Shown here: positions 1,199-60,763 of the stretch, piece by piece | Layout: every line of letters begins with the position of its first letter | How positions within the stretch are numbered: the first letter of the stretch is position 1 | NCBI GenBank assembly: GCA_963833225.1 | Contig: CAWHXD010000007.1 | Coordinates: 192,001 to 256,000 of the forward strand | DNA from: an uncultured Chloroflexia bacterium | GTDB taxonomy: Bacteria > Chloroflexota > Limnocylindria > Limnocylindrales > CSP1-4 | DNA length: 64,000 bases | Direction: 5' to 3' | Program-made: the position numbers and the translations under genes | Notes under the pieces: model-generated | What the model was told of the DNA's origin: nothing | Databases searched by the model: none | Seen by the model: the letters and a program-made list of their open reading frames with translations, nothing else

Positions 1199-1906
1199 TC
1201 AGTCCCGGCGCGCGTCGTCCCGTCGAGGCTCCGGGTTCGCGAAGCCTCGCCGCACCGCGTAGGCGGCGGCCTGGACGCGATTGGTGAGATGGAGCTTCTC
1301 GAGCGCGTTGTGCACGTGGTTCTTGACCGTGCCCTCGGTGATCGTGAGCTCGTTCGCGATCTCCTTGTTGGACAGGCCGTCGGCGACGAGCTCGAGGATC
1401 TCGGACTCGCGGCGGGTCAGGATCGTGTCCTGCGCCGGGACCGCTGCCTGGCTCCGGGTGGGGATCCCGCCGGTACGGAGCGCCTCGAGGAGCCTGGATG
1501 CGACCGCCGGCGCGATCGGTGCCTCGCCACGCATCACGCCCCGCATGTCGTCGAACAGCTGCTCGGGGCGCACGTTCTTGAGCAGGTAGCCATTGGCGCC
1601 GGCCTTGATCGACTCGAACAGGTCGTCGTCGTCCTCGGAGACCGTGAGCATCACGATCGGGGTCCTGAAGCCGGCCTGGCGGATCGCGTTCACACCGTCC
1701 ACCCCGGACGCAACGGGCATGTTGACGTCCATGACCACCAGATCGGGCCGCAGCGCTCGCACCTTCTCGAGCGCGTCACGACCGTTCTCGCCCTCACCCA
1801 CGACCGTCATGTCGAACTGGGCGCCGATCAGCGTCGCGAGCGCCCTTCGGAAGAGGGGCTGGTCATCGACGAGCAGCACCCGAAGTTTCGGTGGCGTGTG
1901 TTCCAA
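1199..1906 (-). CDS. NarL/LuxR-family response regulator
   Basis: REC domain (VLLVDD, VVMDVNMP, GYLLK) plus LuxR HTH (LTRRESEIL...GLSNKEIA...TVKNH); TTG start at 1906 chosen from an upstream GAGG, start uncertain. Confidence 0.93.
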   Translation of the reverse strand: MEHTPPKLRVLLVDDQPLFRRALATLIGAQFDMTVVGEGENGRDALEKVRALRPDLVVMDVNMPVASGVDGVNAIRQAGFRTPIVMLTVSEDDDDLFESIKAGANGYLLKNVRPEQLFDDMRGVMRGEAPIAPAVASRLLEALRTGGIPTRSQAAVPAQDTILTRRESEILELVADGLSNKEIANELTITEGTVKNHVHNALEKLHLTNRVQAAAYAVRRGFANPEPRRDDARRD

Positions 1907-3934: not shown

Positions 3935-4037
3935 TGTCCCGATCCCGCCTGCGTTCGCGGATCCTTGTACCCAAGTGCGAGCGCGCAATGCCGCTGCGCG
4001 TCGGTCCGGCGTGCGTGCTCTCGACACGGTGGAGGAC

Positions 4038-6912
4038 ATGGACCTCGTCGCACGTCAGGCAACGCCCGCGCCCCGGATGAGCTCAGGGGACCCTGCACCC
4101 GTCGTCAACCTGGAGATCGACGGACGCCCGGTGGCGGCCCGAGCCGGCCAGACCGTGCTCCAGGCCGCCCGCGAGGCCGGCGCGTACATCCCGAGCCTGT
4201 GCTATCACCCGAAGCTCGGGTCGGCGGGGCTGTGCCGCGTCTGCGCCGTGGAGGTGGAGGGCGCCAACGGCCTCCAGACGGCCTGCAACCTGCCGGTCCG
4301 CGAGGGGATGGCGGTCCGCACCCAGACCCCGCTGGTCCTCGAGGCTCGCCGCCTGAACATCGAGCTGCAGCTCGCCGCGGGCGTCCACGACTGCCTCGCC
4401 TGCGAGGCGACCGGCCGCTGCGAGCTCCAGGACGTGGCCTATCGGGCGGGCATCGAGCGCCCGGGGTTCGCTGACGCGCGCGAGCGGCGCGCGGCCGGCG
4501 CGACCCGCCCCGTGGACGCCTCGTCCCCGTTCATCGTCCGCGACCCGGACAAGTGCATCCACTGCTTCCGCTGCATCCGGGGCTGCAACGAGGTCGTCGT
4601 CAACGAGGTCCTGGACATGGGCTTCCGTGGCGCGCAGTCGGCGGTGGTGTGCGACAACGACCTGCCGATGGGCCAGTCGAGCTGTGTCCACTGCGGCGAG
4701 TGCGTGCAGCTCTGCCCCACCGGCTCGTTGATCGAGAAGAAGGCGATCGGCCTGGGGCGCCCATGGGACCTGGAGAAGGTCCGCACGACCTGCGCGTACT
4801 GCGGCGTCGGCTGCCAGGTCGAGGTGCACGTGGACCGGGCGACGAACCGGATCGTGCGGGTCGAAGGCGTGGAGGGCGCGCCACCCAACGACGGGATGCT
4901 GTGCATCAAGGGCCGCTTCGGGTACGACTACACCAGCAGCGCGGACCGCCTGGGCACGCCGCTGTTGCGGCGATCACGCGCCGAGAAGCTCGCGCCCGCC
5001 ACGTGGGACGAGGCGCTGGACTTCGCCGCGGAGCGCCTGGCGGCCATCCGGGACCGCGACGGCCCCGACGCGATCGGCGTCGTCGCCTGCGCACGGTCCA
5101 CGAACGAGAGCAACTACGCCGCCACCGTATTCGCCCGCGCGGGGGTCGGGACGAACAGCATCGACCACTGCGCAAGAACCTGACACGCTCCCTCTGTCGC
5201 CGGTCTGGCGACCACATTCGGATCAGGGGCCATGACGAACTCGATCCAGGAGATCGAGGACGCCAAGGTGCTCCTCGTCATCGGCTCCAACACCACCGAC
5301 GCCCACCCGGTCATCAGCTACTACATGAAGCGCGCCCACAAGCGGGGCGCGACGCTGATCGTCTGCGACCCCCGGGCCATCGACCTCGTGCGCTGGGCGG
5401 ATGTCCACGTCCAGCACCGGATCGGCTCCGACATCGCCCTGGTCAACGGCCTCATCCACGAGATCATCAAGCAGGGCTGGGCGGACGAGGCGTTCATCGA
5501 GCACCACACCGAGGGCTTCGACGCCGTCCGCGCCAACGTCGAGCGGTACCCCCCGGAGGTGGCGGCCGAGATCACGGGCGTCCCCGCGGACGAGATCCGG
5601 CGCGTCGCCAGGATCCTCGGCGAAGCGGAATCGGCCGGCGTCTACTACACCCTCGGCATCACGGAGCACATCTCCGGCACCGCCAACGTGGAGGCGCTCG
5701 CCAACCTCCAGATGGTGCTGGGCAACCTCGGCAAGCCGTCCGCCGGCCTCAACCCGCTGCGCGGCCAGAACAACGTCCAGGGCGCCTGTGACGTGGGCGC
5801 GCTGCCCGACGTCTACCTGAACTACCAGAAGGTGGAGAACGAGGAGGTCGCGCTCAAGTTCGAGAAGGCATGGGGCCGGCCGGGCCTGTCCCGCAAGCAG
5901 GGCCTGACGATCCCGTCGATGATGGACGGCCTCGAGGACGGGTCGCTCAAGGCGCTGTACGTGTTCGGCGAGAACATCGCGATCTCCGAGCCCAACTCCC
6001 ACCGCATCGAGGCGCTGCTCCGGGAGGCGGAGCTGATCATCGTCAACGACCTGTTCGAGACCGAGACCAGCGCCTTCGCCGACGTGGTGTTCCCGGCGAC
6101 CTCCTGGGCGGAGGTCGATGGCACGTACACCAACACCGAGCGCCGCGTCCAGCGAGTCCGACCGGTGCTGCGGCCCCCCGGCGAGGCGCGCGACGACTGG
6201 TGGATCTTCGCGCAGCTGGCGAAGCGGCTGGGGTACGACCCGGGGTGGGCGTCGCCGCGCGACGTGTGGGACGAGATCCGGGAGCTGGGCCCCAGCTACC
6301 ACGGGATCACCTGGGAGCGCTGCGAGGACGTCGGCATCCAGTGGCCGGCGCCGACGCTGGACCATCCCGGCACGCCCTACCTCCACATGGACGGGCACTT
6401 CACCCGCGGCCGGGGCCGGTTTGTCCCCGTCGACTGGGTGCCGCCGTCGGAGCCGCCGGACGAGGAGTACCCGCTGGTCCTGTCCACGGGCCGCCGGCTG
6501 TGGCACTACCACACGGGCACCCAGACGCACCGGTCGGCCGGGTTCGACGAGGTGTGTGGCGAAGAGGTGATCGAGATCAGTCCGGCCGACGCGGAGGTGC
6601 TCGGGATCGCGGACGGCGAGATGGTCCGGGTGTCGTCGCGGCGCGGGACGGTGGACGTCAGGGCGTGGGTCACCCACCGGTCGCCACCCGGGGTCTGCTG
6701 GATGGCGTTCCACTTCGCGAAGGCACACGCGAACGTGCTCACGATCGAGGCGGGCGATCCCATCACGCAGACGCCGGAGCTCAAGCACTGCGCGATCCGG
6801 GTCGAGAAGATGCCGGCGGAGTCGACGGCGAGCGCCGCGCCGGCGGCGCGTCCGGACCAGGGACCGGCCGACGTCGACGGGCAGTGGCCCGGCCGGGCAG
6901 GTGCCGTCATGA
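4038..6912 (+). CDS. fdhF: Selenocysteine formate dehydrogenase alpha subunit (FdhF type, NuoG-like N-terminal Fe-S domains); Sec UGA at 5181-5183; in frame with the downstream NuoEF-GltD
   Basis: GGAGG-ATG at 4038; 2Fe-2S (CY...CRVC...TAC), two 4Fe-4S ferredoxin motifs, CAYCGVGC, DHCART-U-HAPSVAGL, PLRGQNNVQG, Mo-bisPGD C-terminal domain; no Tat signal. Confidence 0.93.
5181..5212 (+). promoter_or_regulatory. Sec UGA codon with bacterial SECIS hairpin
   Basis: TGA at 5181, then GTCGCC-GGTCT-GGCGAC (5196-5212), matching the position and loop of the E. coli fdhF SECIS. Confidence 0.9.
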
Positions 6913-9900
6913 CGGTCGCCCGCGATCCCGGAAGCTTGACCGCGACCGAGTGGCGCGAGACCATCGCCGCCCGCTTCCCCGCCGACCCGCGCCTCGTCAT
7001 CCCGGTCCTGCAGTACATCCACGCCGAGGCCGGCTACCTCCCGGAACCGGCGACGCAGGCTGCCGCCGAGCACCTGCGGGTGTCGCGGAGCCGCGTGTTC
7101 GGCGTCGCCAGCTTCTACTCCCAGTTCCACTTCGAGCCCCGCGGGGCGCACGCCGTCACCGTGTGCCGCGGGACGGCCTGCCACGTGCGAGGCTCCGCGT
7201 CCGTCCTGCGGCAGCTCGAGGATCACCTCGGGGTGAAGGCCGGGGACACGACGCCGGACCTCCAGTTCACGCTCGAGACGGTGGCCTGCTTCGGCTCCTG
7301 CGCCCTCGCGCCGGTGGTGGTCGGCGACGGCAAGGTGCACGGGCGCCAGACAGGGTCGAAGGCGCGGGTGCTGGTCGATGCGCTTCGAGAGGCGGCGCAG
7401 GTGGCGGTCGCCGTGGAGCCAGCGGAGCCCGCGACGGTCGCCGACGCTGCCGCGATCGCCGAGCCTTTCGCGATCCCTTCCGCGATACCTGGCGCGGCGC
7501 CGCGCGTCGTCGACCTCGACGCCCGGACCGCGGCCGCGAGGACAGCCTGGGCAGGTCTCCAGGCCGGCGCCCGGACGCTGATCACCGTGGGCACCGCGAC
7601 CTGCGGGCTGGCCGCGGGGGCAGGGGAGGTCGTCGACGCGATCCGCACGGAGCTGGCGGGCCGGGGGATCGAGGCTGAGGTCCTCCTCGTCGGCTGTGTC
7701 GGCATGTGCTTCGCCGAGCCGCTGGTCGAGATCGCGACGCCCGGCCTGCCGCGGGTGACCTACCAGCGCGTCGCCCCGGGGATCGTTCCCCACCTCATCG
7801 AGAGCCACCTCGTCCACGGCGAGCCGCCGGTGGCGTGGGCGCTGGGCACGTCCGGCGAGGGGACGCTCGACGGCGTGCCGCGCCTGGCCGACACCCCGGT
7901 GATGCGCCTGCAGGTCCGCAACGCGCTGCGCAACTGCGGTGTCATCGACCCCACCAGCGTGGACCACTACCTCGCTCGCGACGGGTACGCGGGACTGCGG
8001 CGCGCCCTGGCGATGACCCCCGAGGAGGTCATCGCGGAGGTCACGGCGTCCGGGCTGCGCGGCCGCGGCGGCGGCGGCTTCCCGACCGGCCGGAAGTGGG
8101 CGTTCTGCCGCGAGGCGCCGGGGGATCGCAAGTACGTCATCTGCAACGGCGACGAAGGCGACCCGGGCGCGTTCATGGACCGCTCCGTGCTCGAGGGCGA
8201 CCCGCACGCGGTCCTCGAGGGCCTCGCCATCGCCGGCTACGCGATGGGCGCCTCGCACGGTTACGTCTACGTCCGCGCCGAGTACCCGCTCGCCGTTGCG
8301 CGCCTGGAGCTCGCCCTTCGCCAGATGCGGGAGCTCGGCCTCCTCGGCGACGCCATCCTCGGCACCGGCTTCGCCTTCGACATCGAGGTCAAGCAGGGAG
8401 CCGGCGCCTTCGTGTGTGGCGAGGAGACCGCGCTCATCGCGAGCATCGAGGGTCGCCGCGGCATGCCCCGCCCGCGCCCCCCGTTCCCGGCCACGAAGGG
8501 CCTGTTCGGCCAGCCGTCGAACATCAACAACGTCGAGACGCTCGCCAACGTGCCCGCCATCCTGCGCGAAGGAGCCGCCTGGTTCGCCTCGTTCGGCACG
8601 GAGACCAGCAAGGGCACCAAGACGTTCGCCCTGACCGGCCGGATCAACCGCCCCGGCCTGATCGAGGTCCCGATGGGGGTGACCCTGGGCGCGGTGATCG
8701 ACGAGATCGGCGGCGGGATCGCCGGTGGCGGCCGGTTCAAGGCGGCCCAGACCGGCGGCCCGTCCGGGGGCTGCCTGCCGATCCAGCTGCTGGACCTGCC
8801 GATCGACTACGAGCGCCTCAAGGAGGCGGGCTCGATCATGGGCTCGGGCGGGCTCGTCATCATGGACGAGAGCACCTGCATGGTGGACCTCGCCCGGTAC
8901 TTCCTGACGTTCACCGAGGACGAGTCGTGCGGCCAATGCACGCCCTGCCGGGAGGGGACCGGCCGGATGCTGGAGATCCTCGAGCGGATCTGCCGGGGCG
9001 AGGGCCGCGCGGGCGACATCGAGACGCTCGAGCGCCTGGGACGGGTCGTTCGGGACACGTCGCTGTGCGGGCTTGGCCAGACGGCGCCCAACCCCGTGCT
9101 CACGACCTTGCGCTACTTCCGCGAGGAGTACGAGGAGCACATCCGGGAGCGCCACTGTCGGGCGGGGACATGCGCGGGCCTGGTCCCCGCACCGTGCACC
9201 GGGCTGTGCCCGGCCGGGGTGGAGGCGCACCGGTACGTCCGGGAGATCAGCCAGGGCAACTTCGAGAAGGCGTACCTCGTCGTGCGCGAGAAGCTGCCGC
9301 TCCCGTCGGTGTGCGGCGTGGTGTGCTTCCATCCCTGCGAGCGGTCGTGCCGGCGCGGCGAGCTGGACGAACGGATCGCGATTCGCGCCCTCAAGGGTGC
9401 AGCGGTCAAGTTCGGCGCGCAGGCGGAGGCGAGGGTGCCGGCGCCGTCGCGGCGGCCGTCGGGGAAGTCCGTGGCGGTGGTCGGGTCCGGCCCTGCCGGG
9501 CTCACGGCGGCCTACTACCTGGCGAAGACCGGCGGCCACGCCGTGACCGTGTACGAGGCGCTGGAGCGGCCCGGCGGGATGCTCCGCTATGGGATCCCGC
9601 GCTACCGGCTGACCGACGAGGTGCTGGAGCGGGATCTGGCGATCATCGCGGCCGCCGGGGTGCGAATCGAGACCGGTGCGGAGGTCCGGTCCCTCGACGC
9701 GCTGCGGGCCGCGGGCCACGACGCGATCTTCCTGTCCTCCGGGGCGCACGTGTCCGACTCGATCGGCGACGAGTCGCAGGTCCTCGAGGGTGTCGAGGAC
9801 TGCGTCGGAATGCTGCGGGACGTGGCGGCCGGCCGGCCGGCGTCGATGGGTCGGCGCGTGGCCGTGGTGGGCGGCGGGAACACCGCGATCGACGCGGCGC

Positions 9901-10599
9901 GGACGGCGCTGCGGATCGGAGCGGAGGAGGTGATGGTCCTCTACCGCCGAGACCGCGAGGCGATGCCCGCCGACCCTCACGAGATCGAGCAGGCGCTGCT
10001 GGAGGGGGTGGAGTCTCGAGACCCTGGTAGCACCGGTCGAGGTGCGGCGGGCGGACGGGGGCCTGGACGTGACCTGCCAGCGCGTGCGCCTGGGGGCGAT
10101 CGACCCCGGCGGCCGGCGCCGCCCGGAGCCCATCCCCGGCACCGAGTTCACCGTCCGTTACGACACCGTCCTGTCCGCCGTGGGACAGCATCCGGCGGTG
10201 CCTCCGGAGTGGGGCGTGGAGACGGGGGCCGGGTCCCGGATCACCGTCGCCCCCGGCACCCTCCGCACGGCTGTCGAAGGCGTGTTCGCCGGCGGCGACG
10301 CGGTCCTCGGGCCGGCGTCGGTCATCTCCGCGATGACCCACGGCCGGGCCGCGGCGCAGGAGATCGACCGCTACCTGGGCGGCAGCGGGGACATCGAGGA
10401 GCAGCTTGCGCCGCCCGAGATCGTGGCGGACCTGCCTCCGATGCCGGTGGACGTGGAGGACCGCTACCGTCCGCCGATGCCGGTCAGCGATCTCGCGACG
10501 CGCTTCGGGTCGTTCGCGGAGGTGGAGCTGGGCTACACGCCCGAGGCGGCGATCGAGGAGGCGAGTCGCTGCCTGCGCTGCGACCTGCGCGAGGTCTGA
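6909..10599 (+). CDS. Fused NuoE-like + thioredoxin-like Fe-S + NuoF/HydB-like + GltD/NfnB-like NAD(P)H oxidoreductase; one frameshift near 10015
   Basis: VCRGTAC...ACFGSC (NuoE); GRGGGGFPTG, GDEGDPGAFMDR, CGQCTPCREG (NuoF); CGVVCFHPCERSC, GSGPAG, GGGNTAID, YRR; then in the shifted frame FAGGD and EASRCLRC (GltD-like). Confidence 0.88.
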
Positions 10600-10604
10600 T
10601 CCGA

Positions 10605-10637
10605 TGACCGCGGCCCGGCCCGAGGCGGCCGCGGTCA
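10605..10637. terminator. GC-rich hairpin between the convergent FDH operons (possible bidirectional terminator)
   Basis: TGACCGCGGCC (10605-10615) / GGCCGCGGTCA (10627-10637), perfect 11-bp inverted repeat with no U-tract. Confidence 0.5.
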
Positions 10638-11624
10638 GGGCTTCGGGCGGGCCTGGACGAACTCGAAGCCGAAGCGGCCCTTCACGCACAGGTGGCCAGA
10701 GGTGACCGAGGACTCGATCGGCGAGGTCACCTTGACGATCGAGTTGTCCTGGACGTGGAGGGTGAGCGTGCAGCCCACGCCGCAATACGGGCAGATCGTG
10801 TCGGTCTGCGTCTGCGTGCCCTCGTCCCACGTGCCGGCGGCGCGCATCTCGTGCTCCGAGCGGAACATGAGCGCGCCGGTGGGACAGACGCCGATGCAGT
10901 TGCCGCAGTAGACGCACGCGGACGAGGTCAGCGGGGCGTCGTACTCGGTGGAGATATGGGCGTCGAAGCCCCGCCCGGCCACGGCGATCGCGAACGTGTT
11001 CTGGGCGTCGGTCCCGCAGGCCTCGACGCACTTGTAGCAGAGGATGCACCGGGAGTAGTCGCGGACGTAGAGGTCGTTGTCCACCTTGACCGGCTGGGCG
11101 ATCGTGTCGGCGTGCTCGCCGGTGACCGGGTCGTGGTGACCGGGCTCGCGGGCGTCGCGCCCGGCGGCGGCCCGGGGCGCGGGCGGGCCGAAGCGCGCGG
11201 GCTCCGCCCCGTACTCGGTCATCATGTCCGCGACCGTCGGGGCGATCGACAGGTCCACCGCCGAGGCCAGCAGCTCCAGGACCAGCCGCCGACTGTGGCG
11301 GACCCGCGGCGACGCCGTCTGGACCTCCATCCCCGGCTCGACACGGCGGGAGCAGGCCGGCACGAGCACCCGACTCCCCGCCACCTCCACGACGCACACG
11401 CGGCAGGCGTTGACCGGCGTGAGGCTCTCGAGGAAGCACAGCGTGGGGACGTCGACGCCCGCCCCGCGGCAGGCATCGAGGATGGTCGACCCGGCGGGCA
11501 CCGTGACCGGGCGCCCGTCCAGGGTGAGCTCCACGACCGGGACGTCGGGAGCCGGAGGGGCCGCTGGGGTTCGCGACGGCCGGGCCGGTGGCTCGAGCGG
11601 GATCCGGGAGATGTCGTGTGTCAC
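10635..11624 (-). CDS. NuoG-like Fe-S subunit of a split FDH (2Fe-2S, 2x4Fe-4S, C-terminal molybdopterin-oxidoreductase 4Fe-4S domain)
   Basis: CFLE...CRVC...PAC; CILCYKCVEAC; CVYCGNCIGVCP; CPYCGVGC...LCVKGRFG; GTGA overlap with the upstream gene. Confidence 0.9.
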   Translation of the reverse strand: MTHDISRIPLEPPARPSRTPAAPPAPDVPVVELTLDGRPVTVPAGSTILDACRGAGVDVPTLCFLESLTPVNACRVCVVEVAGSRVLVPACSRRVEPGMEVQTASPRVRHSRRLVLELLASAVDLSIAPTVADMMTEYGAEPARFGPPAPRAAAGRDAREPGHHDPVTGEHADTIAQPVKVDNDLYVRDYSRCILCYKCVEACGTDAQNTFAIAVAGRGFDAHISTEYDAPLTSSACVYCGNCIGVCPTGALMFRSEHEMRAAGTWDEGTQTQTDTICPYCGVGCTLTLHVQDNSIVKVTSPIESSVTSGHLCVKGRFGFEFVQARPKP

Positions 11625-13642
11625 GTCTCGTCCCCTCCGTGCGCGCCGTACACCGCCGGGTGGTCGTCGTCGGGCACGGGCAGGCCCCGGGCCGCCGGGG
11701 CCCCCGCCACGAGCTCCGGCCCCTCGAACCTCACCAGGCCGGCCCGGATCGCGGACTCCGCGGCCGACGTCGCCGCCTGGCCCAGGCCGCAGATCGATGC
11801 GTCCCGCATGGCCAGGCCGAGGTCCGCGAGCAGCGCGAGCTCGTCCTCCACCGTGGCTCGCGCCCGCCCGCTGGCCAGCCGCGCGAGGAGCTCCTCCTGG
11901 CGCACGGTGCCGATCCGGCACGGGACACACTGTCCGCACGACTCGTCCCGGAAGAACGCCGCGATGCGCAGCAGGGCATCGGCAAGGTCCGCCGTCTCGT
12001 CGAACACCATCACCACGCCGGAGCCGAGGGTGGCGCCGGCGGCCCGGGTGGCCTCGAACGTGAGCGGCATCGTCAGGGCATCCGGCCCCACGAACACCCC
12101 CGCGGCGCCGCCGAGCAACACGGCCCGCAACGTCCGTCCCCCGGCCACGCCGCCCGCCATCGCCAGCAGCTCGCCCAGCGTTGCCCCGAACTCGACCTCG
12201 TACACACCCGGCCGCTCGATGGCGCCTGACAGGCAGAACAGCTTTGGCCCCGTGCTGCCCGGCGTGCCCACGGCCGCGAATGCGGCGCCGCCGTGCTCCA
12301 CGATGGCCGGGATGTTGACCAGGGTCTCGATGTTGTTGACAGCCGTCGGCTTGCCGAACAGCCCGACCTCGACCGGGAACGGGGGCTTGTTGCGCGGCTC
12401 GCCGCGCCGGCCCTCGATCGAGTTGAACAGCGCCGTCTCCTCGCCGCAGATGTAGGCGCCCGCGCCGCGCCGGATCTCGATGTCGAAGTCGACGCCCGAG
12501 CCGAGGATGTCCCGGCCCAGGTACCCGGCCGCGCGCGCCCGCTCGAGGGCGTTCGCCATGCGGAGGGCAGAGAGCGGGTACTCGGCCCGCAGGTAGAGGT
12601 AGCCGTGGTGGCTGTCGGTGGCGAACCCCTCGATCGTCATCGCCTCCACGATCGCGAACGGGTCTTCCTCCATGAGCACCCGATCCTTGAACGTGCCCGG
12701 CTCGGATTCGTCCGCGTTGCACACCGTGTAGTGGGGACGGGCGGGCTGCGCGACGACGGCGGCCCACTTGCGTCCGGTGGGGAAGGCGGCACCGCCACGG
12801 CCCAGCAGCCCGGAGGCGGTGACCTCCGCGATCACCCCGTCTCGCCCCAGCTCCAGCGCGCGCCGGAGGCCCCGGTATCCGCCGGTGGCGAGGTAATCGT
12901 CGAGGCTGGCGGGGTCGGCGACACCCGCCCGGCGCAGGAGCCGGAGCCCCGACCCGCCGGCCTGGGGAACGGAGCGGCGGACGTGGGCGAGGCGCGTCTC
13001 GCCCGGTCCCGCGGACCCGAGGGGTGGCAGCAGGGACGTGCCGGCCAGGGCGCGCTCGAGGTGCTCGACGACCTCGGCGGCGTCGGCCGGTGCCGTTGCG
13101 ACGGTCTCCGGCCGGTTGCCGGCGACCGTGAACAGGGCCACCGGGCCTCGCTCACAGCGACCCAGGCACGGGGCTCGCAGCCAGGTCGCGCGGCCGTCAA
13201 GCCCGGCCTCGCCGGCGGGGCCGACCAGCCGCTCCAGCTCGGAGCAGAAGCGCTCGGAGCCCGCCAGGCGACAGGCCACGTCGTCGCACACGCGGGCCAC
13301 GACCGGGGGCCGCGGCACCGTCGACAGCATCTCGTAGAACGCCGCCACGCCGTACGCATCGGCCGGCGGCACGGTCAGGCGCCGGCACGCGTACTCCAGC
13401 GCCGGCTGGCTGATCCAGCCGACACGCGCCTGGATCGCGTGGAGCACCGGCAGCAGGAGGTGGCGTCGGCTCCTGGCCTCGTGCCCGCCATGGGCGATGC
13501 GGTCGTCGGCGCCCGCAGCACCGCCGCCGGCCGACAGCTCGCGGTCACCACCCTCCCAGCGGCTCGTGGGCGGTCCGATGATGCCGTCCACGGCCGCCCG
13601 CTCCTCGGCGTTCGCGCGCGGGGCGAGGGTGACCAGGTCCAT
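11621..13642 (-). CDS. Fused NuoE-NuoF NADH-binding (diaphorase) subunit of FDH-2
   Basis: VCDDVAC...PCLGRC; GRGGAAFPTG; NADESEPGTFKDR; GAGAYICGEE; CGQCVPC; TGATG overlap with the catalytic subunit. Confidence 0.92.
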   Translation of the reverse strand: MDLVTLAPRANAEERAAVDGIIGPPTSRWEGGDRELSAGGGAAGADDRIAHGGHEARSRRHLLLPVLHAIQARVGWISQPALEYACRRLTVPPADAYGVAAFYEMLSTVPRPPVVARVCDDVACRLAGSERFCSELERLVGPAGEAGLDGRATWLRAPCLGRCERGPVALFTVAGNRPETVATAPADAAEVVEHLERALAGTSLLPPLGSAGPGETRLAHVRRSVPQAGGSGLRLLRRAGVADPASLDDYLATGGYRGLRRALELGRDGVIAEVTASGLLGRGGAAFPTGRKWAAVVAQPARPHYTVCNADESEPGTFKDRVLMEEDPFAIVEAMTIEGFATDSHHGYLYLRAEYPLSALRMANALERARAAGYLGRDILGSGVDFDIEIRRGAGAYICGEETALFNSIEGRRGEPRNKPPFPVEVGLFGKPTAVNNIETLVNIPAIVEHGGAAFAAVGTPGSTGPKLFCLSGAIERPGVYEVEFGATLGELLAMAGGVAGGRTLRAVLLGGAAGVFVGPDALTMPLTFEATRAAGATLGSGVVMVFDETADLADALLRIAAFFRDESCGQCVPCRIGTVRQEELLARLASGRARATVEDELALLADLGLAMRDASICGLGQAATSAAESAIRAGLVRFEGPELVAGAPAARGLPVPDDDHPAVYGAHGGDET

Positions 13643-15546
13643 CAGGCTCGCTCCACGCGGATCGCGGTGGCCTTGAACTCGGCGGTCCCGGACTTCGGAT
13701 CGGTCGCGTCGATCGTCAGGCGGTTGGTCGCGACGTCGTCCCCGAAGTGGAAGGTCATGAACGCGAGGCCCGGCCGCAGCCCGGGGTCGGTCCGGACAGG
13801 CGCCTCGACCTCCCCGCGGCGGGAGACGACCCGCACCGGCTCCCCCTCGGCGAGGCCGAGCCGGAGGACGTCCTCCGGGGACAGGTCCAGCGTCTCGCCG
13901 CGGCGTCGCGGGTACCGGTACCGACCCGACTGGACGCCGGTGTTGTAGGAGTCGAGATGGCGCCCGGTGGTGAGCCGGATCGGGAACTGCTCGGTCAGCC
14001 GGTCCACCGGCGGGTCGTGCTCGACGGGGATGAACGGGGCCCGGTTGCCGGGGACCGGATCCTCCCACAGGTGCGAATGGAGGAACAGCTCGCCCGGATG
14101 CGTCTCGTCGTAGCACGGCCACTGGAGGCCCCCCTCAGCCTCGAGACGGGCATAGCTGATGCCGGCGTGGATGGGTGACAGGCGACGCACCTCCTCCCAT
14201 ACCGCCTCGGCCGACGGCGTGCCCCAGTCGTGGCCCATCCGCCGGGCGAGCTCGTAGATGATCCCCAGGTCGTCCCTCGCGTCGCCCGGCGGCTCGACCG
14301 CCTTGCGGACTCGCTGGACACGACGTTCGGAGTTGGTGACCGTGCCCTCGGTCTCCGCCCAGGCGGCGGCGGCTGGCAGGACGACGTCGGCCAGCTCGGC
14401 GGTGGGGGTCAGGAAGATGTCCTGGACGACGAGCAGCTCGAGTCCGGCCAGCAGCTTCTCGGCCCGGCCCCGGTCGGCCTCCGACTGGAGGGGGTTCTCG
14501 CCGATCACGTACAGCGCGGTGAGCTCGCCCCGTTCCATGGCTTCGAACATTGCGGACATGTGCCAGCCGCGTTCGGGCGGAATGGCGACGCCCCACGCGG
14601 CTTCGAACGGAGCGCGCAGCGCCGCCTCCTCGAGGTGCTGGAACCCGGGCAGCCGATCGGGCAGGGCGCCCATGTCGCCCCCGCCCTGGACGTTGTTCTG
14701 GCCGCGCAGCGGGTTGAGGCCGCTGCCGTACCGTCCAACATGCCCGGTGAGCAGGGCGAGGGAGATCAGCGCCAGCACGTTGTCGACGCCGTTGTGGTGC
14801 TCAGTGATCCCCAGCGTCCAGCAGATCATCGCCCGGTCCGCCTGGGCGTAGGTGTGGGCGGCCTCGCGGATCGCCTCGGCGGGAATGCCGGTCTCGCGCT
14901 CGGCCCACTCGAGCGTGCACGGCTCCACGGCCGCCCGGTAGGCGTCAAAGCCGGTCGTGGCCCGCCCGATGAACTCGTGGTTGGCGAGCCCGGCCGCGAT
15001 GATCTCCCGGGCCATCGCGTTGGCGAGCGCGATGTCGGACCCCACGTCCAGGCCCAGCCACAGGTCGGCCCACTGGGCGCTCGAGGTCCGGCGCGGGTCG
15101 ACGGAGATCAGGCGCGCGCCGCGGTGCACCCCCTTCAGGAGGTGGTGGAAGAAGATCGGGTGCGCCTCCCGGGCGTTGCTGCCCCACAGGAGGACGACGT
15201 CGGTGTCCTCGATCTCCCGGTATGAGCTGGTCCCGCCACCAGCGCCGAACACGGCCGCCAGACCGGCGACAGAGGGGGCGTGTCAGGTGCGGTTGCAGCT
15301 GTCGATGTTGTTGCTGCCCAGGACAACCCGGGAGAACTTGCCGGCCGCGAAGTTGACCTCGTTGGTCGACTTGCTGCAGCAGAAGATCCCGTATGACCAC
15401 GGTCCATGCGATGCGCCCGCTGCCCGGAGCCCGTCGGCCGTTCGTCCGAGGGCCTCGTCCCAGGTGGCTGGCCGGAGGGGTGCCCCGGACCGGCGGTCAC
15501 CGTCGCGCACGAGCGGCGTGGTCAGGCGGACGTACTCCCTTGGCAC
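13642..15546 (-). CDS. Selenocysteine formate dehydrogenase catalytic subunit (634 aa, Sec at codon 88) lacking its own N-terminal 4Fe-4S domain
   Basis: GAGGTG RBS + GTG at 15546; NNIDSCNRT-U-HAPSVAGL with UGA at 15283-15285; PLRGQNNVQG; GTVTNSERRVQ; joins two ORF-track fragments in one frame. Confidence 0.92.
15254..15285 (-). promoter_or_regulatory. Sec UGA codon with SECIS hairpin
   Basis: Minus strand reads TGA CACGCCCCCTCT GTCGCC-GGTCT-GGCGGC. Confidence 0.9.
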
Positions 15547-19080: not shown

Positions 19081-19083
19081 ACG

Positions 19084-21443: not shown

Positions 21444-22493
21444 TCAGCGGAGCGCCACGCCCACCTCTCCCGCCTCCACGTGGCCCACCCGCCACGCCGC
21501 CACGCCCGCGGTCACGAGGTCCGCGAGCACGGCCTCCGCATCGGCCGGGGCCACCGCCGCCAGGAGCCCGCCCGAGGTCTGCGGGTCGTGCGCCAGCGCG
21601 ACCAGCTCAGGGTCAACGCCCGCGCCGACGGTCAGCGCGGTCGCGGTGAACCGGCGATTGTGGCCGGCGCCACCGGTCTCCATGCCGGATCGCGCCAGGT
21701 CCAGTGCCCCGGCGAGCGCCGGCAGGGCTGCGGCATCGAACACCAGCCGCGCCCCGGAGGCCCGCGCCATCTCCAGCCCGTGACCCAGCAGCCCGAACCC
21801 CGTCACGTCGGTCGCACCGCGGACGCCGTGGCGCGCAAGCACCTCCGATGCGGCTCGGTTGAGCGTCCGCATCTGGTCGATGGCGACATCGAGGTCCGCG
21901 TCCGAGACCAGCCCGGACCGCCGGCCGCTCACGAGGAGCCCGGTCCCGAGCCGCTTCGTCAGCAGCAGGACGTCCCCCGGGCGCGCGCCACCCTTGCGGA
22001 ACAGCCGGTCCGGGTGCGCGGCCCCGATCACGGCGAGGCCGTACTTCGGCTCCCGATCGCTGATCGTGTGGCCGCCCGCCAGCACGCCGCCGGCCTCGCG
22101 GACCTTGGCGGCCGCCGCCTCGAACACCGCCGCCAGCGCGAGCTTCGGGAAATCCTCGGGAAAGGCCGCGATCGAGAGCGCGAACAGGACGCGCCCACCC
22201 ATCGCGAACACGTCGGACAGCGCGTTGGCGGCCGCGATCTCCCCGTAGGCGACCGGGTCGTCGACCAGGGGTGGGAAGAAATCGAGCGTGCCGATGATGG
22301 CGAGATCGTCGCTCACCCGGTACGCGGCCGCGTCATCGGGCGGCTCAAGCCCCGCGATGAGCGCGGGGTCGTCGCTGGCCCCCAGGCCCGCCAGCGCGTC
22401 GGCGAGCAGGTCGGCTCCCAGCTTGGCGGCGCAGCCGCCGCAGTCGGTCATGTCGGTCAGGTGGATGGGCGGCAGGACGGGACGCTCGAGCAT
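21444..22493 (-). CDS. selD: Selenide, water dikinase (selenophosphate synthetase), Cys form
   Basis: DCGGCAAK, DDAAAY, TLDFFPPLVDDP, ANALSDVFAMGG, GGHT, TDVTGFGLLGH, DPQTSGGLL. Confidence 0.96.
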   Translation of the reverse strand: MLERPVLPPIHLTDMTDCGGCAAKLGADLLADALAGLGASDDPALIAGLEPPDDAAAYRVSDDLAIIGTLDFFPPLVDDPVAYGEIAAANALSDVFAMGGRVLFALSIAAFPEDFPKLALAAVFEAAAAKVREAGGVLAGGHTISDREPKYGLAVIGAAHPDRLFRKGGARPGDVLLLTKRLGTGLLVSGRRSGLVSDADLDVAIDQMRTLNRAASEVLARHGVRGATDVTGFGLLGHGLEMARASGARLVFDAAALPALAGALDLARSGMETGGAGHNRRFTATALTVGAGVDPELVALAHDPQTSGGLLAAVAPADAEAVLADLVTAGVAAWRVGHVEAGEVGVALR

Positions 22494-22560
22494 CAGGCGA
22501 TCATAGGCGCCTCCACCGCGGTTGCGCAGGCGTAGCATCTGACCGGAGGTGTCCGACCGA

Positions 22561-24320: not shown

Positions 24321-24417
24321 GGGAGCGGAGGGGTCCCGGTGGGCTCCCTGGTCTTCAAAACCAGTGGCGCGGCGCCCGGCGTCGCGCGGTGGGTTCGACT
24401 CCCATGCGCTCCCGCCA
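24321..24417 (+). tRNA. selC: tRNA-Sec (anticodon UCA)
   Basis: GGGAGCG/CGCTCCC acceptor stem with G discriminator and encoded CCA; long D stem with 4-nt loop; CTGGT-CTTCAAA-ACCAG anticodon arm; long variable arm; GTGGG-TTCGACT-CCCAT T arm. Confidence 0.95.
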
Positions 24418-26647: not shown

Positions 26648-26651
26648 GCCG

Positions 26652-29793: not shown

Positions 29794-29827
29794 CGTCGAG
29801 CCCCTCGTCCTGCCCCGCCGCGGGTGG

Positions 29828-32218: not shown

Positions 32219-32423
32219 AGACCCTCCTTCGCGCTCACGAGGCACCCGCCCCAGCGGTTCGAGGCGCGCCGAGGTGGGGATCATGCACTGTCGTGCGGTT
32301 GACCGTCGCGCGAAATCTGTCCGCTCGTCGTCCTCCGGGGCAAGGGCCCGTCCCGCATCGTGGGTCCCGAAGGTGGCGACGGGGATCGGGTGCGCTCGTG
32401 CCGCGCGGGGTACGCTCGCGGTG

Positions 32424-33077
32424 ATGAGCAACGAGCCGGCGACAATTCCCGCGGCGACCCAGGAGGCCATCGAGGAGCCCGCGGAGCGCGGCTGGGCCGA
32501 TTACTACCGGTACACGCTGGGCCGCGAGCCGCGTCCCCTGTTCACCAGAGGGATGACGGCGCTCACGGCCGCCGGGCTGACGCACGGAACCGCGGTGGAC
32601 GTGGGGGCGGGCGACGGGACGGAGACCCTGGCGTTGCTCGAGGCGGGCTGGCGGGTCGTGTCCGTCGACAGCGCGCCGGAGTCCGCGGAGGTCCTGCTCC
32701 CGCGGGTCCCCGACCTGCACCGGGAGCGGCTGGTCACGGTCACCGCACCGGTCGAGACGGCGGACCTGCCCCCATTCGACCTGTTGTACTCGGCCTACGT
32801 GCTGTCCTACCTCGCGCCCGATGCCTTTGGCCGCCTGTGGGCCGCGGCGCGCGACCGGTGTCGGCCCGGGGGCTTCCTCGTGGTCAACATCTTTGGTGAC
32901 CGGCACGAGGCGGCGGGCGCGGAGCCGGATACGACGTTCCTGCCGCGCGCCGAGGTGGAGCGGCTGCTCGAGGGCCTCGAGATCGTCGCGTTCGAGGAGG
33001 TGGAGGAGGACGGCGGCTCGTTCACGGGTCCGACACACTGGCACCTGTTCGACATCGTGGCGAGGCGCCCGGCATGA
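32424..33077 (+). CDS. Class I SAM-dependent methyltransferase (TehB/TPMT-like)
   Basis: AVDVGAGDG motif I, GWRVVSVD, FDLLY, RPGGFL; ATGA overlap with selA. Confidence 0.85.
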   Translation: MSNEPATIPAATQEAIEEPAERGWADYYRYTLGREPRPLFTRGMTALTAAGLTHGTAVDVGAGDGTETLALLEAGWRVVSVDSAPESAEVLLPRVPDLHRERLVTVTAPVETADLPPFDLLYSAYVLSYLAPDAFGRLWAAARDRCRPGGFLVVNIFGDRHEAAGAEPDTTFLPRAEVERLLEGLEIVAFEEVEEDGGSFTGPTHWHLFDIVARRPA

Positions 33078-34447
33078 GCGGCAGGCCCGCCCGGGAGCGG
33101 CCGCCCAGCGTGGAGGCCGTGCTGCGGGTCCTCCGCGAGGAGGTCGAGTGGTCGGAGCCGGAGCCGCTGGCCGACGCCGTCCGCGCCGTCCTGGCGGCCC
33201 ACCGCGCCTCGATCGCGGCCGGTGGTGAGGCCCGGAGCCCCACGGACCTCGCGAGGGAGGCGGCGGCGGGCCTGGTGTGGGCGGCGGCGCCCCAACGCGT
33301 GATCAACGCGACCGGGGTGATCCTCCACACGAACCTGGGGCGTGCGCCCTGGCCCGAGGCCGCCCGCGCCGCCGCCGCGCTTGCCGCCGCGGACTACGGC
33401 TATCTGGAGCTGGATCCAGCGACCGGCCGCCGGGGCCGGCGGTTCCGCGCGGCCGAGGACCACCTGGTGGCGCTGACCGGCGCCGAGGACGCGATGGTGG
33501 TCACCAACAACGCTGCGGCGCTGCTGCTGGCGGTGGGTCTTGCCGGGCGGCGGGGGTCTGTCGTCGTGTCCCGCGGCGAGCTGGTGGAGATCGGCGGCGG
33601 CGTCCGGATCCCGGAGGTCGTCGCCCGGGCCGGCGCCCGACTCATCGAGGTGGGGACGACCAACCGGACCCGCCCGACCGACTTCGAGGCGCCCCTCGCG
33701 GAGGGGCGCGCCCGGGCGGTGCTCCGCGTCCACCCCTCGAACTTCACGATGGAGGGGTTCGCGGAAGCGGCGGACCTCGCCGAGGTCGCCGCGATCGCCC
33801 ACCGTCACGGCGCCCTGGTGATCGACGACCTCGGGTCGGGGGCGCTGCTGGACACGGCCCGGTTCGGCCTCGCGCACGAGCCCACGCCGGCGGAGCGCCT
33901 CGAGGCGGGCGCCGACGTGGTGCTGTTCAGCGGCGACAAGCTCGTCGGCGGTCCGCAGGCCGGGCTCGTGGTGGGGCGCCGGGAGCTCGTGGCGCGGATG
34001 CGGCGGGACCCGCTGGCGCGTGCCGTCCGGCCCGACAAGGCGATCCTGGCCGCCGTCGCCGCGACCCTGGGGATCTACCGGGCCGGCCGCGCACGGCTCG
34101 ACATCCCGGTCTGGCGAACGATCGCCCGGGACGCGGCGGAGCTGCGGACCCGAGCCGGGTGGATCGCCGGCCGGTGCGCCGTTGGGGATGATCCGGCGCC
34201 GGTCCGGGTCGTCGACCTGCGGTCGCCCATCGGCGGGGGCTCGCTGCCCGGCCAGACGCTGCCATCGGCGGGGGTCGCCGTCGCCTGCGGCTCGCCGGCC
34301 CGGGCGGCAGCCGCGCTCCGGCGAGGGGAGCCGCGGATCCTGGCACGCGTCGAGAGCGGCGAGCTGGTGCTTGATCTGCGCACCGTGGACCAGGCCGATG
34401 ACAGCGGCGTCGCACGGGCGATCCAGGGAATCCTCTGCGATCGATGA
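33074..34447 (+). CDS. selA: L-seryl-tRNA(Sec) selenium transferase
   Basis: [59 protein letters not shown]. Confidence 0.96.
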
Positions 34448-36387
34448 GCGTCGTCATCGGCACGGCCGGCCACATCGACCACGGCAAGACGACGCTCCTC
34501 CGCGCGCTGACCGGGATCGACGCCGACCGGCTGCCCGAGGAGCGCCGGCGCGGCATGACGATCGACGTCGGGTATGCGCACCTCGTCCTCGAGGACGGCT
34601 CGGTGCTGGATTTCGTGGACGTGCCCGGTCATGACCGGCTGGTGGGCAACATGCTCGTCGGGGCGGGCGAGATCGACGCTGCGCTGCTGGTGGTCGCGGC
34701 CGATGACGGGCCAAACGCCCAGACCCTGGAGCACCTCGAGCTGCTCGACGCGATCGGCGTTCGCGAGGCCGTGATCGCGGTGACGAAGACGGACCTGGTC
34801 GACGCCGACCGGGTTGCCGACGTGACCGGGGCCATCGCGTCGCTGGTCGGGCGCACGCGACTCGCGGGCGCGCCCGTGGTCGGCGTGAGCGGCGTCACCG
34901 GCGATGGTGTCGACGAGCTCCGCACGGCCCTTGCGGCGCTGCGCGACCGGGCGGCGGTTGGGCGCCCGCGGGCCGGTTCCGCCCGGCTGGCGATCGATCG
35001 CACGTTTGCCATCCGGGGTCGCGGGCTCGTGGTCACCGGGAGCCTGCGCGGCGGCCCCGTTTCCACCGGGTCGACGCTGCGCCTGGTTCCCGGTGGCATC
35101 GACCTGCGTGTGCGCGAGGTCCAGGTCCGGGGAGCCACGGTGCCGGCGTCCGACGGCGGGCGCACGGCGCTCCTCGTCGCCGGCGCGGAGGCCGAGCTGC
35201 TCGAGCGGGGGCGCATCCTCACGACCGATCCAGCCGTCGTCGCCACGTCGCGAGTCCTCGTCGCGCTACGGCCGCCGGCCGGGCTGGCGGCCATCCGGCG
35301 CGCCGCCGGCACCGCTGCCCGTGGGGGGTCCGCGGAGGCGCCCGCGGACCGTGACCGGCTGCGCCTCCACGTGGGCACGGCGCAGGCCGGCGCCCTCGTC
35401 GTGCGCGGGCCACGCGAGGCGATCGACCTGCCCGATGGGACGACCCTCGCCATCCTCCGGCTGGACACGGAGATCGCCGCCGCCGCCGGGGACTCGTTCG
35501 CGCTGCGCCGGCCGTCGCCGGGCGCGTCCGCGGGTGGTGGCGTGCTCCTTGACCCGTTGCCGCCCCGTGGCGTGTCGCGCCGACGGTTGACGCCGGCGCG
35601 GGCGGCCGCGCTTGCGTCCGCGGTGGCGGCGATGACGCGCGGCGATCCGGACGGAGCACCGGCCGTCGCGGATGCGCGCCTCGACCTCCACGGGGTGGTC
35701 CGCGAGCGTGACGGCTGGCTCGTGGCCCCGGACGTGCATGCCGCGCTGGCGGCCACCGCGCTGGACCTGGTCCGGGCCCACCACGCCGCGGAGCCGGAGT
35801 CTCCGGGCCTGGCGTTGCCGGTCATGCGCTCCGAGCTGGCGCTCGCCGCCCGCCGCCGCGCGACCCTGGGTCGCGCGGCGGCCGAGGACGTCGCCCGTGC
35901 TGAGGTCGACCGGCTGGTTGCCGATGGGACCCTGGCCCGGGACGGCGAGCGGCTGCGGGACCCGGAACGGGCCGCGGGGCTGCCGGCCGCGACGCTGGCG
36001 GCGATGGACCGACTGGAGACCGCGCTCTCGGTTGCCGCACCCCCGGCGCTCTCGGTGGCCGCACGCGACGCGGGCTGCCCGGCTGACGGCGTCCGGGCGC
36101 TCGAGACCGCGGGCCGGATCGTTCGCCTCGAGGACGATCTTGCCTGGGGGGCGGGGACCTACCGGGAGCTGGTGCGCAAGGCGCTGGCGATGGCCGCCGC
36201 GGCGCCGCTCGCCCCCGCCGCCTTCCGCGACGCCACGGGCACCAGCCGGCGCTACGTGCTGGTGGTCCTCGAGGACCTCGACCGGCGGGGTCTCCTTCGC
36301 CGCACCGATCTGGGCCATGTCCTGGGCCCCACGACGATCGCCCGGATGCAGGCCCGGGCGGCCGCCGCGCGGGAGCCCCGCGGGTGA
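34444..36387 (+). CDS. selB: Selenocysteine-specific elongation factor
   Basis: [35 protein letters not shown]-terminal winged helix TSRRY...LEDLD. Confidence 0.95.
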
Positions 36388-56133: not shown

Positions 56134-56235
56134 GGACGGATGGTAGCCCGCCCGGCACGCACGTGACGGGCCGAGCGATGCAGGTCGGGTGCCGAATGGC
56201 GCAACCGAGAGGTGCTGGATGCGCGCTCGAGACCG

Positions 56236-56934: not shown

Positions 56935-56938
56935 TCGA

Positions 56939-57700: not shown

Positions 57701-57715
57701 CGCCTGGCCTCCTGT

Positions 57716-59050: not shown

Positions 59051-59052
59051 GC

Positions 59053-60763
<1,711 letters not shown>

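Follow-up and report, generated by a model that had tools for sequence, protein, structure and literature searches.

This locus raises the question of what reaction an enzyme catalyzes when its NuoF subunit, of the HydB type found in electron-bifurcating enzymes, ends in a GltD-type FAD/NADPH module instead of a ferredoxin-like tail and is encoded directly behind a formate dehydrogenase (FDH). It lies on the plus strand of a 64,000-nt window, the whole stretch of DNA analyzed here, which is part of contig 7 of an uncultured Chloroflexia genome bin (3.89 Mb, 20 contigs, 86% complete, ~72% G+C). On balance, we favor the reading that the locus encodes a soluble, Mo- or W-dependent formate dehydrogenase containing selenocysteine (Sec), a three-site, ferredoxin-free enzyme that would reduce both NAD+ and NADP+ without strict coupling. 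An earlier note on this DNA had already drawn attention to the NuoF–GltD junction and had proposed an enzyme coupling formate/CO2 to both NAD(H) and NADP(H), conceptually related to the Stn and Nfn transhydrogenases.

Frame 0 is open from an ATG at 4038 to 10607, interrupted by one in-frame TGA only (5181–5183), and the Pfam domains on this 4038 frame fall into three blocks: FdhA, NuoE/NuoF-like and GltD-like. Their scores lie well outside anything that chance would give. In all likelihood, the true gene model consists of two genes, fdhA and nuoE-nuoF-gltD, coupled by an ATGA overlap, and the assembled sequence carries two extra bases. The features are as follows, with the supporting evidence in parentheses; G012 is a same-genus genome carrying the closest ortholog.

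4038..6912, plus strand: fdhA, formate dehydrogenase alpha subunit (Pfam, reading frames, G012 ortholog, related-strain contig)
5181..5183, plus strand: in-frame TGA read as selenocysteine, motif IDHCART-U-HAPSVAGL (translation, TGA in the ortholog)
5178..5236, plus strand: SECIS-like hairpin directly 3' of the TGA (Rfam SECIS_3, below gathering score)
6870, plus strand: extra base, probable assembly insertion, joining fdhA in frame with the next gene (related-strain contig, ATGA overlap)
6909..10599, plus strand: nuoE-nuoF-gltD fusion gene, diaphorase subunit, ~1229 codons discounting extra base 10014 (Pfam, intact 1218-aa G012 ortholog)
6960..7385, plus strand: NuoE/HydC-like thioredoxin-fold [2Fe-2S] domain with the C1 cluster, CRGTAC...CFGSC (PF01257, 2Fe-2S_thioredx, 7.5e-46; residues 975–1116 of the 4038 frame)
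7560..7907, plus strand: N-terminal thioredoxin-like domain of HydB/BfuB type, B5 site (family alignment, match to Bfu B chains)
8040..9140, plus strand: NuoF core with flavin mononucleotide (FMN)/NAD(H) site, SLBB domain and four-helix bundle with the B1 [4Fe-4S] cluster, CGQCTPC...LCGLG (PF01512, 1.1e-46; PF10531; PF10589, 4.8e-35)
8877..9173, plus strand: B2-type Cys/His site, comprising C of CMVD, H of EEHI and C..GTC (family-invariant; aligns to EYEAHIRDKKCPAGVC of HydB and StnB)
9153..9401, plus strand: Fer4_20 domain with two predicted [4Fe-4S] clusters, APCxxxCP and CxxxCxxxCxxxC (PF14691, 3.2e-13; NfnA residues 101 onward)
9468..10013, plus strand: first part of the FAD and NADP(H) Rossmann domains, with VVGSGPAG, GGGNTA (that is, GxGxxA) and LYRR (PF07992, Pyr_redox_2, 3.3e-17; PF13450; 9bov_A alignment including vlyrr)
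10014, plus strand: extra T, probable assembly insertion, shifting frame 0 to +1 within the GltD module (related-strain contig, G012, alignment rows)
10015..10599, plus strand, frame +1: remainder of the FAD/NADPH module, reading GVFAGGDAV, then the C-terminal tail, whose invariant CxxC is at 10570–10581 (PF07992 positions 222–291, PF14691 positions 3–28)

The NuoE domain is fused N-terminal to NuoF, and all four Cys residues of its C1 cluster are present in the translation. The closest solved relatives of the NuoF part are the B subunits of Bfu enzymes (7t2r_B, 2.4e-213; 9bov_B; 8oh5_B, which is StnB; 9n5u_B; 7q4v_B, which is HydB; range 2.4e-213 to 6.2e-171), whose N-termini it matches from residue 3–8, whereas non-bifurcating FdsB (3.5e-130 and 1.7e-119) and complex I NuoF (about 1e-118 to 1e-94) are more distant. 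Judged by sequence, the NuoF part is therefore of the bifurcating Bfu/HydB type, as the earlier note had concluded from motifs that do all lie in frame 0 where it had placed them: GAFM (8166), GAGAFVCGE (8397), GGPSG (8754), CMVD (8877), EEHI (9132), GTC (9165), GGGNTA (9870) and YRR (9942). The N-terminal thioredoxin-like Cys domain, which it had also recognized, is present from 7572 (RTLITVGTATCG) with only three of the four family Cys residues; Gly replaces the first in this protein and its closest relatives, while most members have CxxxxC...CxxxC. StnB lacks two of the four Cys residues of this domain and yet bifurcates (PMC7483475), and B5 is a Zn site in Csac NfnB (PMC11829005).

In the two family alignments (17 and 55 rows), the B2 residues (C of CMVD, H of EEHI and CxxxxC) are invariant, as are the B1 Cys residues in 55 of 55 rows. 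The NuoF part can be aligned with HydB and StnB up to and including EEYEEHIRERHCRAGTC, the Cys/His B2 site, beyond which the register is lost; homology to HydB stops there and switches to NfnA from residue 101 onward. Pfam analysis of the 4038 frame detects no 2x[4Fe-4S] Fer4 dicluster domain, which would hold clusters B3 and B4, behind the NuoF core.

In its place stands the GltD-like module, as the earlier note had stated. The chain passes from the B2 site straight into APCTGLCPAG...CGVVCFHPCERSC, followed by the FAD (VVGSGPAG) and NADPH (GGGNTA, LYRR) folds. From PAPCTGLCPAG on, the top solved relatives are NfnA (9bov_A residues 101–376, 1.3e-70), StnC (8oh5_C, 1.2e-65) and archaeal NfnA (1.7e-62), with NfnB/NfnL (4ylf_B, 4.6e-48; 5jca_L, 7.6e-41) and GltD (6s6s_G, 1.3e-33) ranking lower. 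The modules of NfnA and StnC are proven to oxidize NADPH. The features of the GltD/NfnB family are present, namely two Cys clusters, the FAD motif GxGxxG, the NADPH motif GxGxxA, which has been proposed as an NADP(H) motif (PMC7483475), and the GD motif. CxxxCP, CxxxCxxxCxxxC and a C-terminal RCLxCD are invariant in the family alignments. The last two Cys residues of the GltD-type cluster motif lie at the extreme C-terminus (RCLRCD, 10570–10581), in the frame +1 end of the module that reads GVFAGGDAV ... EEASRCLRCDLREV up to the stop at 10597–10599. Since tail residues 165–190 match Fer4_20 positions 3–28, the first half of the usual GltD cluster motif must have been shifted to the C-terminus in a permuted arrangement, and this tail is kept in 16 of 16 full-length alignment rows.

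An AlphaFold model of the intact NuoF–GltD part of the G012 protein (1014 residues), computed from the 55-row alignment, has a mean predicted local distance difference test score of 89.4 and a predicted template-modeling (TM) score of 0.84. In Foldseek comparisons, its first 535–570 columns superpose on NfnB, StnB and HydB (58–49% identity; for 9bp5_B, 58% identity and a root-mean-square deviation of 1.6 Å over 535 columns) and its last 470–530 columns superpose on NfnA and StnC (43–36% identity). No solved chain found by Foldseek spans both halves, the top query-normalized TM-score being 0.51.

The operon partner of this fusion is FdhA, which by its sequence looks like an active Sec formate dehydrogenase subunit. 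Its N-terminus is NuoG-like, with [2Fe-2S], His/Cys [4Fe-4S] and 2x[4Fe-4S] sites, and is followed by the Mo-type [4Fe-4S] site and a catalytic part that binds Mo/W-bis-pyranopterin guanine dinucleotide (Pfam Fer2_4, NADH-G_4Fe-4S_3, Fer4, Molybdop_Fe4S4, Molybdopterin at 1.4e-70 and Molydop_binding at 1e-32). The translation retains the FDH active-site motif of Sec followed by His. The G012 ortholog has a TGA at the same position as 5181, and the FdhA partners in other loci have TGA, TGT or TGC there. The Rfam SECIS_3 model aligns end to end with 5178–5236, scoring 29.1 bits (E 1.3e-4), short of its gathering score of 63; a GUCGCC/GGCGAC hairpin follows the TGA, with a folding energy no better than that of shuffled sequences. 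The full Sec-decoding set lies within the same window as fdhA:

21444..22538, minus strand: selD (TIGR00476, 1.7e-99)
24321..24413, plus strand: tRNA-Sec (RF01852, 72.3 bits)
33074..34447, plus strand: selA (TIGR00474, 4.3e-129)
34444..36387, plus strand: selB (TIGR00475, 1.9e-82)

Given a Bfu-type NuoF, an NADPH-type module and an active-looking Sec-FdhA, the natural reading is that the enzyme links formate with NAD(H) and NADP(H), and to this extent the proposal of the earlier note stands. Coupling or bifurcation does not follow from it, since the B3/B4 clusters needed for bifurcation to ferredoxin are absent. Alongside the observed domains, cofactor motifs, gene order, Sec machinery and conservation, we infer an electron path, its direction and the assignment of NAD and NADP to their sites. 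Formate would be oxidized at the Sec/pterin site of FdhA, and electrons would travel along its NuoG-like Fe-S chain to B1 and the FMN of the NuoF core, where NAD+ would be reduced as in FdsABG and the Bfu enzymes. A second branch would run from the [2Fe-2S] cluster of NuoE (C1) through the two GltD-type [4Fe-4S] clusters to FAD, reducing NADP+. C1 and the GltD clusters would stand where Bfu enzymes have their exit from C1 to B3/B4 and on to ferredoxin (PMC11829005), and formate/CO2 would be linked to both pyridine-nucleotide pools without ferredoxin. In an aerobic, methyl-oxidizing host, the direction would most likely be towards CO2, yielding NADH and NADPH.

Several points weigh against this reading. 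Cofactor binding and nucleotide specificity are deduced from motifs and homology, and the second branch is a predicted electron path. The NuoF site could take NADP, by analogy with the NADP-specific Hyt complex, in which a NuoF-type subunit does so (PMC5861303). The retained B2 site, thioredoxin-like domain and NuoE C1 cluster hint at surviving gating or coupling, and an explanation that takes this hint further is that the Bfu core (B1-FMN-C1) still splits formate electrons, with NAD+ as the high-potential acceptor and NADP+ replacing ferredoxin as the low-potential one. We consider such ferredoxin-free bifurcation unlikely, and equally so its outcome, which would be obligatory 1:1 formation of NADH and NADPH or, in reverse, confurcation for CO2 reduction, with H2 used likewise in Hox-linked paralogs; if it were true, aerobes and facultative bacteria could hold a highly reduced NADPH pool from weak donors. 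The whole scaffold except B3/B4 is kept, with family-invariant B1, B2 and GltD Cys motifs, and the NADPH module sits exactly where HydB and NfnB have their low-potential exit domain. From physiological potentials of about -280 mV for NAD, about -380 mV for NADP and -420 mV for formate (PMC9304861), we reason that NADP+ reduction at low formate would need a push, and the fused diaphorase that accompanies a Hox [NiFe]-hydrogenase in the genus would face the same problem with H2 (-414 mV). Under standard conditions, however, both reductions by formate are downhill, so that coupling is not required; moreover, T. kivui HydABC lost bifurcation upon deletion of B3/B4 (PMC11829005), and the FAD of StnC, the closest relative of the module, is non-bifurcating (PMC10482914).

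That last observation also bears on a four-substrate enzyme of the Nfn kind, in which the GltD-type FAD would bifurcate, its clusters would face free ferredoxin, NuoE/NuoF would play the part of NfnA, and formate would be an extra donor. This is distinctly improbable in our judgement, even though the module is homologous to NfnB/NfnL, whose two clusters lead to ferredoxin (PMC5861303), and genes of the 2-oxoacid:ferredoxin oxidoreductase type are present in the genome (three POR_N matches): the module is clearly nearer to NfnA and StnC, and the covalent link between its cluster domain and the end of the NuoF core suggests an internal wire rather than a surface exit. We retain the three-site enzyme without strict coupling as the preferred reading.

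The assembled sequence has two frame breaks. At 6909–6912, the TGA of an ATGA in frame +1 overlaps the ATG of MTVARDPGS, and without base 6870 fdhA stops there. At 10014, the frame moves from 0 to +1; 7560–10599 is thus not the single open frame of the earlier note, and the gene begins further upstream, at 6909, with the fused NuoE. The G012 ortholog is 85% identical and consists of two genes, fdhA, whose stop lies in a GTGA overlap, and an intact NuoE-NuoF-GltD gene of 1218 residues behind it; G012 reads LLEGVRLETLVAPV across the 10014 position and lacks the extra base, and all 16 other rows of the 17-row alignment run through this position to the C-terminal tail. The coding signal in G+C at third codon positions is undiminished in frame +1 up to the conserved stop. 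In one sequencing run (X3), a contig bridging 6667–7271 lacks base 6870 (depth 5.72, 46 differences in 604 bases) and a contig bridging 9978–10516 lacks base 10014 (depth 3.53, 26 differences in 539 bases). Each of these is a single, low-depth contig from a related strain 92–95% identical, not from the same strain, and the breaks could be real and the gene dead. None of the four sequencing runs compared bridges 6870 or 10014 with near-identical sequence, at most 0.22 of the sampled words being found in any listed run. One contig of another run (X4) begins at 6869 with 10 unaligned letters and has no bearing on the break.

Other genes of this assembly are split in a similar manner. Within the window, an Amidohydro_3 domain is divided over two frames near 37480, an SbcC-like gene near 44450 and a transketolase near 63410–63476, and the first of the MttB genes described below lacks a stop (19060–19084), the stop lying in the next frame one codon before the ATG of the next gene; on contig 5 of the same genome, FTHFS occupies three frames (64775–66468). 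Indels seem to occur in this assembly about once every 10 kb. Because genes elsewhere are split over frames and neither the ortholog nor the related contigs have the extra bases, those at 6870 and 10014 were most likely introduced in assembly.

If the breaks were instead real, an insertion would have fused fdhA to nuoE and a second would have truncated the FAD/NADPH module, leaving the NADP branch or the whole operon in decay. So reads the assembled sequence; among the matches listed, an FDH-linked ortholog of at least 85% identity occurs only in this genome and G012 of 25 genus genomes, and a neighboring second Sec-FDH operon could make the first one dispensable. We nevertheless regard decay as rather improbable, since housekeeping genes (transketolase, SbcC, FTHFS) are split likewise, which points to a general indel error rate, and since the coding signal persists in frame +1 with the C-terminal tail fully conserved. 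Hardly credible is a natural four-part FdhA-NuoE-NuoF-GltD protein of ~2190 residues. Frame 0 has no stop between 5184 and 10607, but the ATGA stop/start overlap lies in frame +1, the genes are separate in the G012 ortholog and the related contig, and none of 41 matches of at least 1816 aa combines Molybdopterin with Complex1_51K (the best, 42% identical, has no Molybdopterin domain); we reject this fusion on these grounds. A programmed +1 frameshift at 10014 was likewise ruled out, since the base is missing from both the G012 ortholog and the related contig, and the site shows no conservation.

Far from being unique to this locus, the architecture belongs to a widespread family, to which database, Atlas and genome-locus searches all point. 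A protein-database search with the junction region returned at least 8000 candidates at E <= 1e-10. Among the 120 matches listed, all 120 have NADH_4Fe-4S and Fer4_20, and 117 also have Complex1_51K, the other three being fragments of 572–630 aa; their lengths cluster at ~1000–1040 aa (no NuoE) and 1218–1252 aa (NuoE fused), and they are named only 'NADH-quinone oxidoreductase subunit F/NuoF'. The ESM Atlas contains many clusters of 55–290 members with the same domain mix, and NuoF-GltD fusions occur in at least seven phyla. The family is thus widespread, generically annotated and uncharacterized. In a scan of species-representative genomes, 80 loci, of at least 600 pattern matches, were mapped by local tblastn and show these arrangements:

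10 of 80 loci: GltD module directly after NuoF (L030, L031, L032, L056, L061, L063, L084, L092, L100, L107)
9 of 80 loci: Stn/NfnABC order, module inside the NuoG-like gene, with an FdhF-like part only 24–35% identical to the FdhA described here
9 of 80 loci: plain Fdh-Bfu
Rest of the 80 loci: other arrangements

Three of the ten direct fusions adjoin an FdhA that is 48–50% identical and has the Cys/Sec-His motif (L030, Dehalococcoidia; L031, Desulfobacteraceae; L092, Bacteroidales). A 31–32% identical FdhA-like gene adjoins the fusions in L061 and L107, and L032 has a 74-residue FdhA-like match only; no FdhA was seen beside those in L056, L063, L084 and L100, partly because contigs end. Among the matches listed, the 85% ortholog is found in G012 only of 24 same-genus relatives, six others having a fusion ~50% identical. 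In a quick tree of 96 NuoF cores with 18 fused rows, three rows of which have long branches, the NuoF core groups inside the Fdh-Bfu/HydABC radiation, and a supported 13-row clade unites the NuoF studied here with L030, L031 and L032. A single origin of the fusion is not supported by this tree, which requires 10 changes of label to account for its 18 fused rows, at least four of these being forced by well-supported branches.

Related arrangements are seen around the family. In some genomes of the same NuoF clade (L033, L034, L035, L037, L064), NuoF is unfused and a separate GltD-like gene lies 1–2.5 kb further on; judging from these unfused neighbors, the NuoF-GltD partnership may be older than the fusion. 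Four of these loci (L033, L034, L037, L064) also have a NuoG/FdhF-like gene of low identity (23–27%), which is unmatched in L035. In the same-genus genome G006 (contig 1, 772000–790000, locus L110), 6606–12981 encodes NuoE, a thioredoxin-like-NuoF-GltD protein (open reading frame of 1086 aa), a 235-aa HoxU-like Fe-S protein and a [NiFe]-hydrogenase large subunit, that is, a Hox-type hydrogenase whose HoxF has the same GltD extension; ~50% identical same-genus paralogs are also found in L020–L025. In the Dehalococcoidia metagenome-assembled genome of L030, a gene at 4025–6178, upstream of NuoE, NuoF-GltD and FdhA, codes for a complete NuoG-like N-terminus fused with a GltD-like module; downstream there is yet another GltD-like gene, the third at this locus. 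Contig 6 of the genome studied here (55500–60500, L112) encodes a distant NuoF with 41% identity that sits on a very long branch. The gene behind it fuses ~100 residues from the start of a NuoG-like [2Fe-2S] domain with a GltD-like module, and the pair recurs in many genomes of the genus. In the sister family (G025–G040, genomes of ~1.1 Mb), NuoF-like and GltD-like matches lie ~370 bases apart (for example, G030 contig 18, 7627–10107) within one long open frame holding a single TAG (TAA in G039).

Downstream of the fusion gene, the window continues with a second, convergent operon, separated from the first by the following feature, likely a two-way terminator:

10605..10637, no strand assigned: perfect 11-nt inverted repeat between the two convergent operons

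The second Sec-FDH operon (10635–15546, minus strand) has an alpha subunit that is split and reordered. Its catalytic part (~15546 to 13642, Fdh-alpha positions 141–672), with an in-frame TGA at 15283–15285 in SCNRT-U-HAPSVAGL and a SECIS_3 match of only 17.8 bits, sub-threshold, is followed by a NuoE-NuoF fusion (~13645–11621) and then by the N-terminal Fe-S part (~11650–10635; Fer2_4, Fer4, Molybdop_Fe4S4), which ends ...CVKGRFGFEFVQARPKP, exactly where the catalytic part begins. On the other side of fdhA, and divergent from it, a NarL-type response regulator and a NarQ/NarX-like histidine kinase (1199–3674, minus strand) are possible regulators of the fdhA operon.

The Sec genes are surrounded by four MttB-superfamily methyltransferase genes (17643–20526 and 25193–28808), which match TIGR02369 at E 1e-96 to 7e-108 without reaching its cut-off, and by a PotABCD-like ABC transporter (28948–32284). 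This suggests a quaternary-amine/methylamine demethylation island feeding C1 units to the FDHs. Besides the POR_N matches, the genome contains two heme-copper oxidase (COX1) genes and FTHFS, and no match to acetyl-CoA synthase was found in it at 86% completeness. This gene content fits a pathway in which methyl groups are oxidized to CO2 by way of formate, NADH entering respiration and NADPH biosynthesis.

The NuoF/HydB-GltD fusion is not described in the full-text literature searched, which includes the available parts of PMC9012536 and PMC7325909; the supplementary tables of PMC9304861 and Andersson & Roger 2002 (GltD fusions) lie outside that coverage. The copy in the window is one more, poorly assembled member of the family, in an assembly with frequent single-base indels; the family as a whole pairs with either FDH or [NiFe]-hydrogenase. 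One characterized member would tell a two-nucleotide diaphorase from a new mode of bifurcation and would correct the generic 'NuoF' annotation, and CO2/formate biocatalysis has a practical interest in FDHs that directly regenerate NADPH.

Among known systems, the StnABC/NfnABC complexes of Sporomusa ovata, Caldicellulosiruptor saccharolyticus and Thermococcus sibiricus (PDB 8oh5, 9bov, 9n5u) share the NuoE-like and HydB-type NuoF parts (55–58% identity to StnB and NfnB in the fold comparison). They also contain an FdhF-like domain, and their FAD/NADPH module is the closest solved relative of the one described here. The Stn/Nfn relation drawn in the earlier note thus holds for the NADPH module but not for its place: in Stn/Nfn the module sits in the NuoG/FdhF-like subunit, whose FdhF part is catalytically dead (PMC10482914), whereas here it follows NuoF, and FdhA keeps the Sec-His motif and full Mo domains. 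Stn/Nfn use ferredoxin, while nothing here indicates a ferredoxin site. NfnAB/NfnSL and GltD share the Fer4_20 and Pyr_redox_2 fold of the module, including its pair of [4Fe-4S] clusters, its FAD and its NADPH site; the differences here are the position of the first CxxC, which lies at the C-terminus, the fusion of the module to NuoF and the lack of an NfnA/NfnS partner.

The FdsABG enzymes of Rhodobacter capsulatus (6tg9) and Cupriavidus necator (6vw7) share the soluble Mo-FDH and a NuoE/F-type diaphorase that reduces NAD+ at FMN. They are not known to be selenoproteins. Their NuoF part is more distant by the E-values given above, and they have no NADPH module and, according to PMC11829005, no B2–B5 sites. 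Moorella thermoacetica FdhAB, a Sec-FDH whose beta subunit carries Fe-S clusters and an NADP-binding, GltD-like part (PMC5736913), offers a precedent for a GltD-type module on an FDH; by its description, it has no NuoE/NuoF part and so no second nucleotide site.

Fdh-Bfu (for example, HylABC-FdhF2 of Gottschalkia acidurici) and HydABC, finally, share a catalytic subunit feeding a NuoE/NuoF core with a thioredoxin-like N-domain and B2 site. The BfuBC cofactor core is called 'absolutely conserved' in all Bfu members (PMC9304861), and canonical BfuB ends in a 2x[4Fe-4S] domain (B3/B4), through which electrons reach ferredoxin and which bifurcation requires (PMC11829005, PMC9304861); the fusion has the Fe-S/FAD/NADPH module in its place. 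The fusion can be classified neither as a canonical BfuB, since B3/B4 are absent, nor as Stn/Nfn-Bfu, since there the module is in another subunit and the FDH here looks active; it resembles a hybrid of Fdh-Bfu and Stn. The Bfu-type enzymes described so far use ferredoxin, whereas the NuoF-GltD family keeps their core and swaps the ferredoxin-reducing arm for an NADP(H) flavoprotein.

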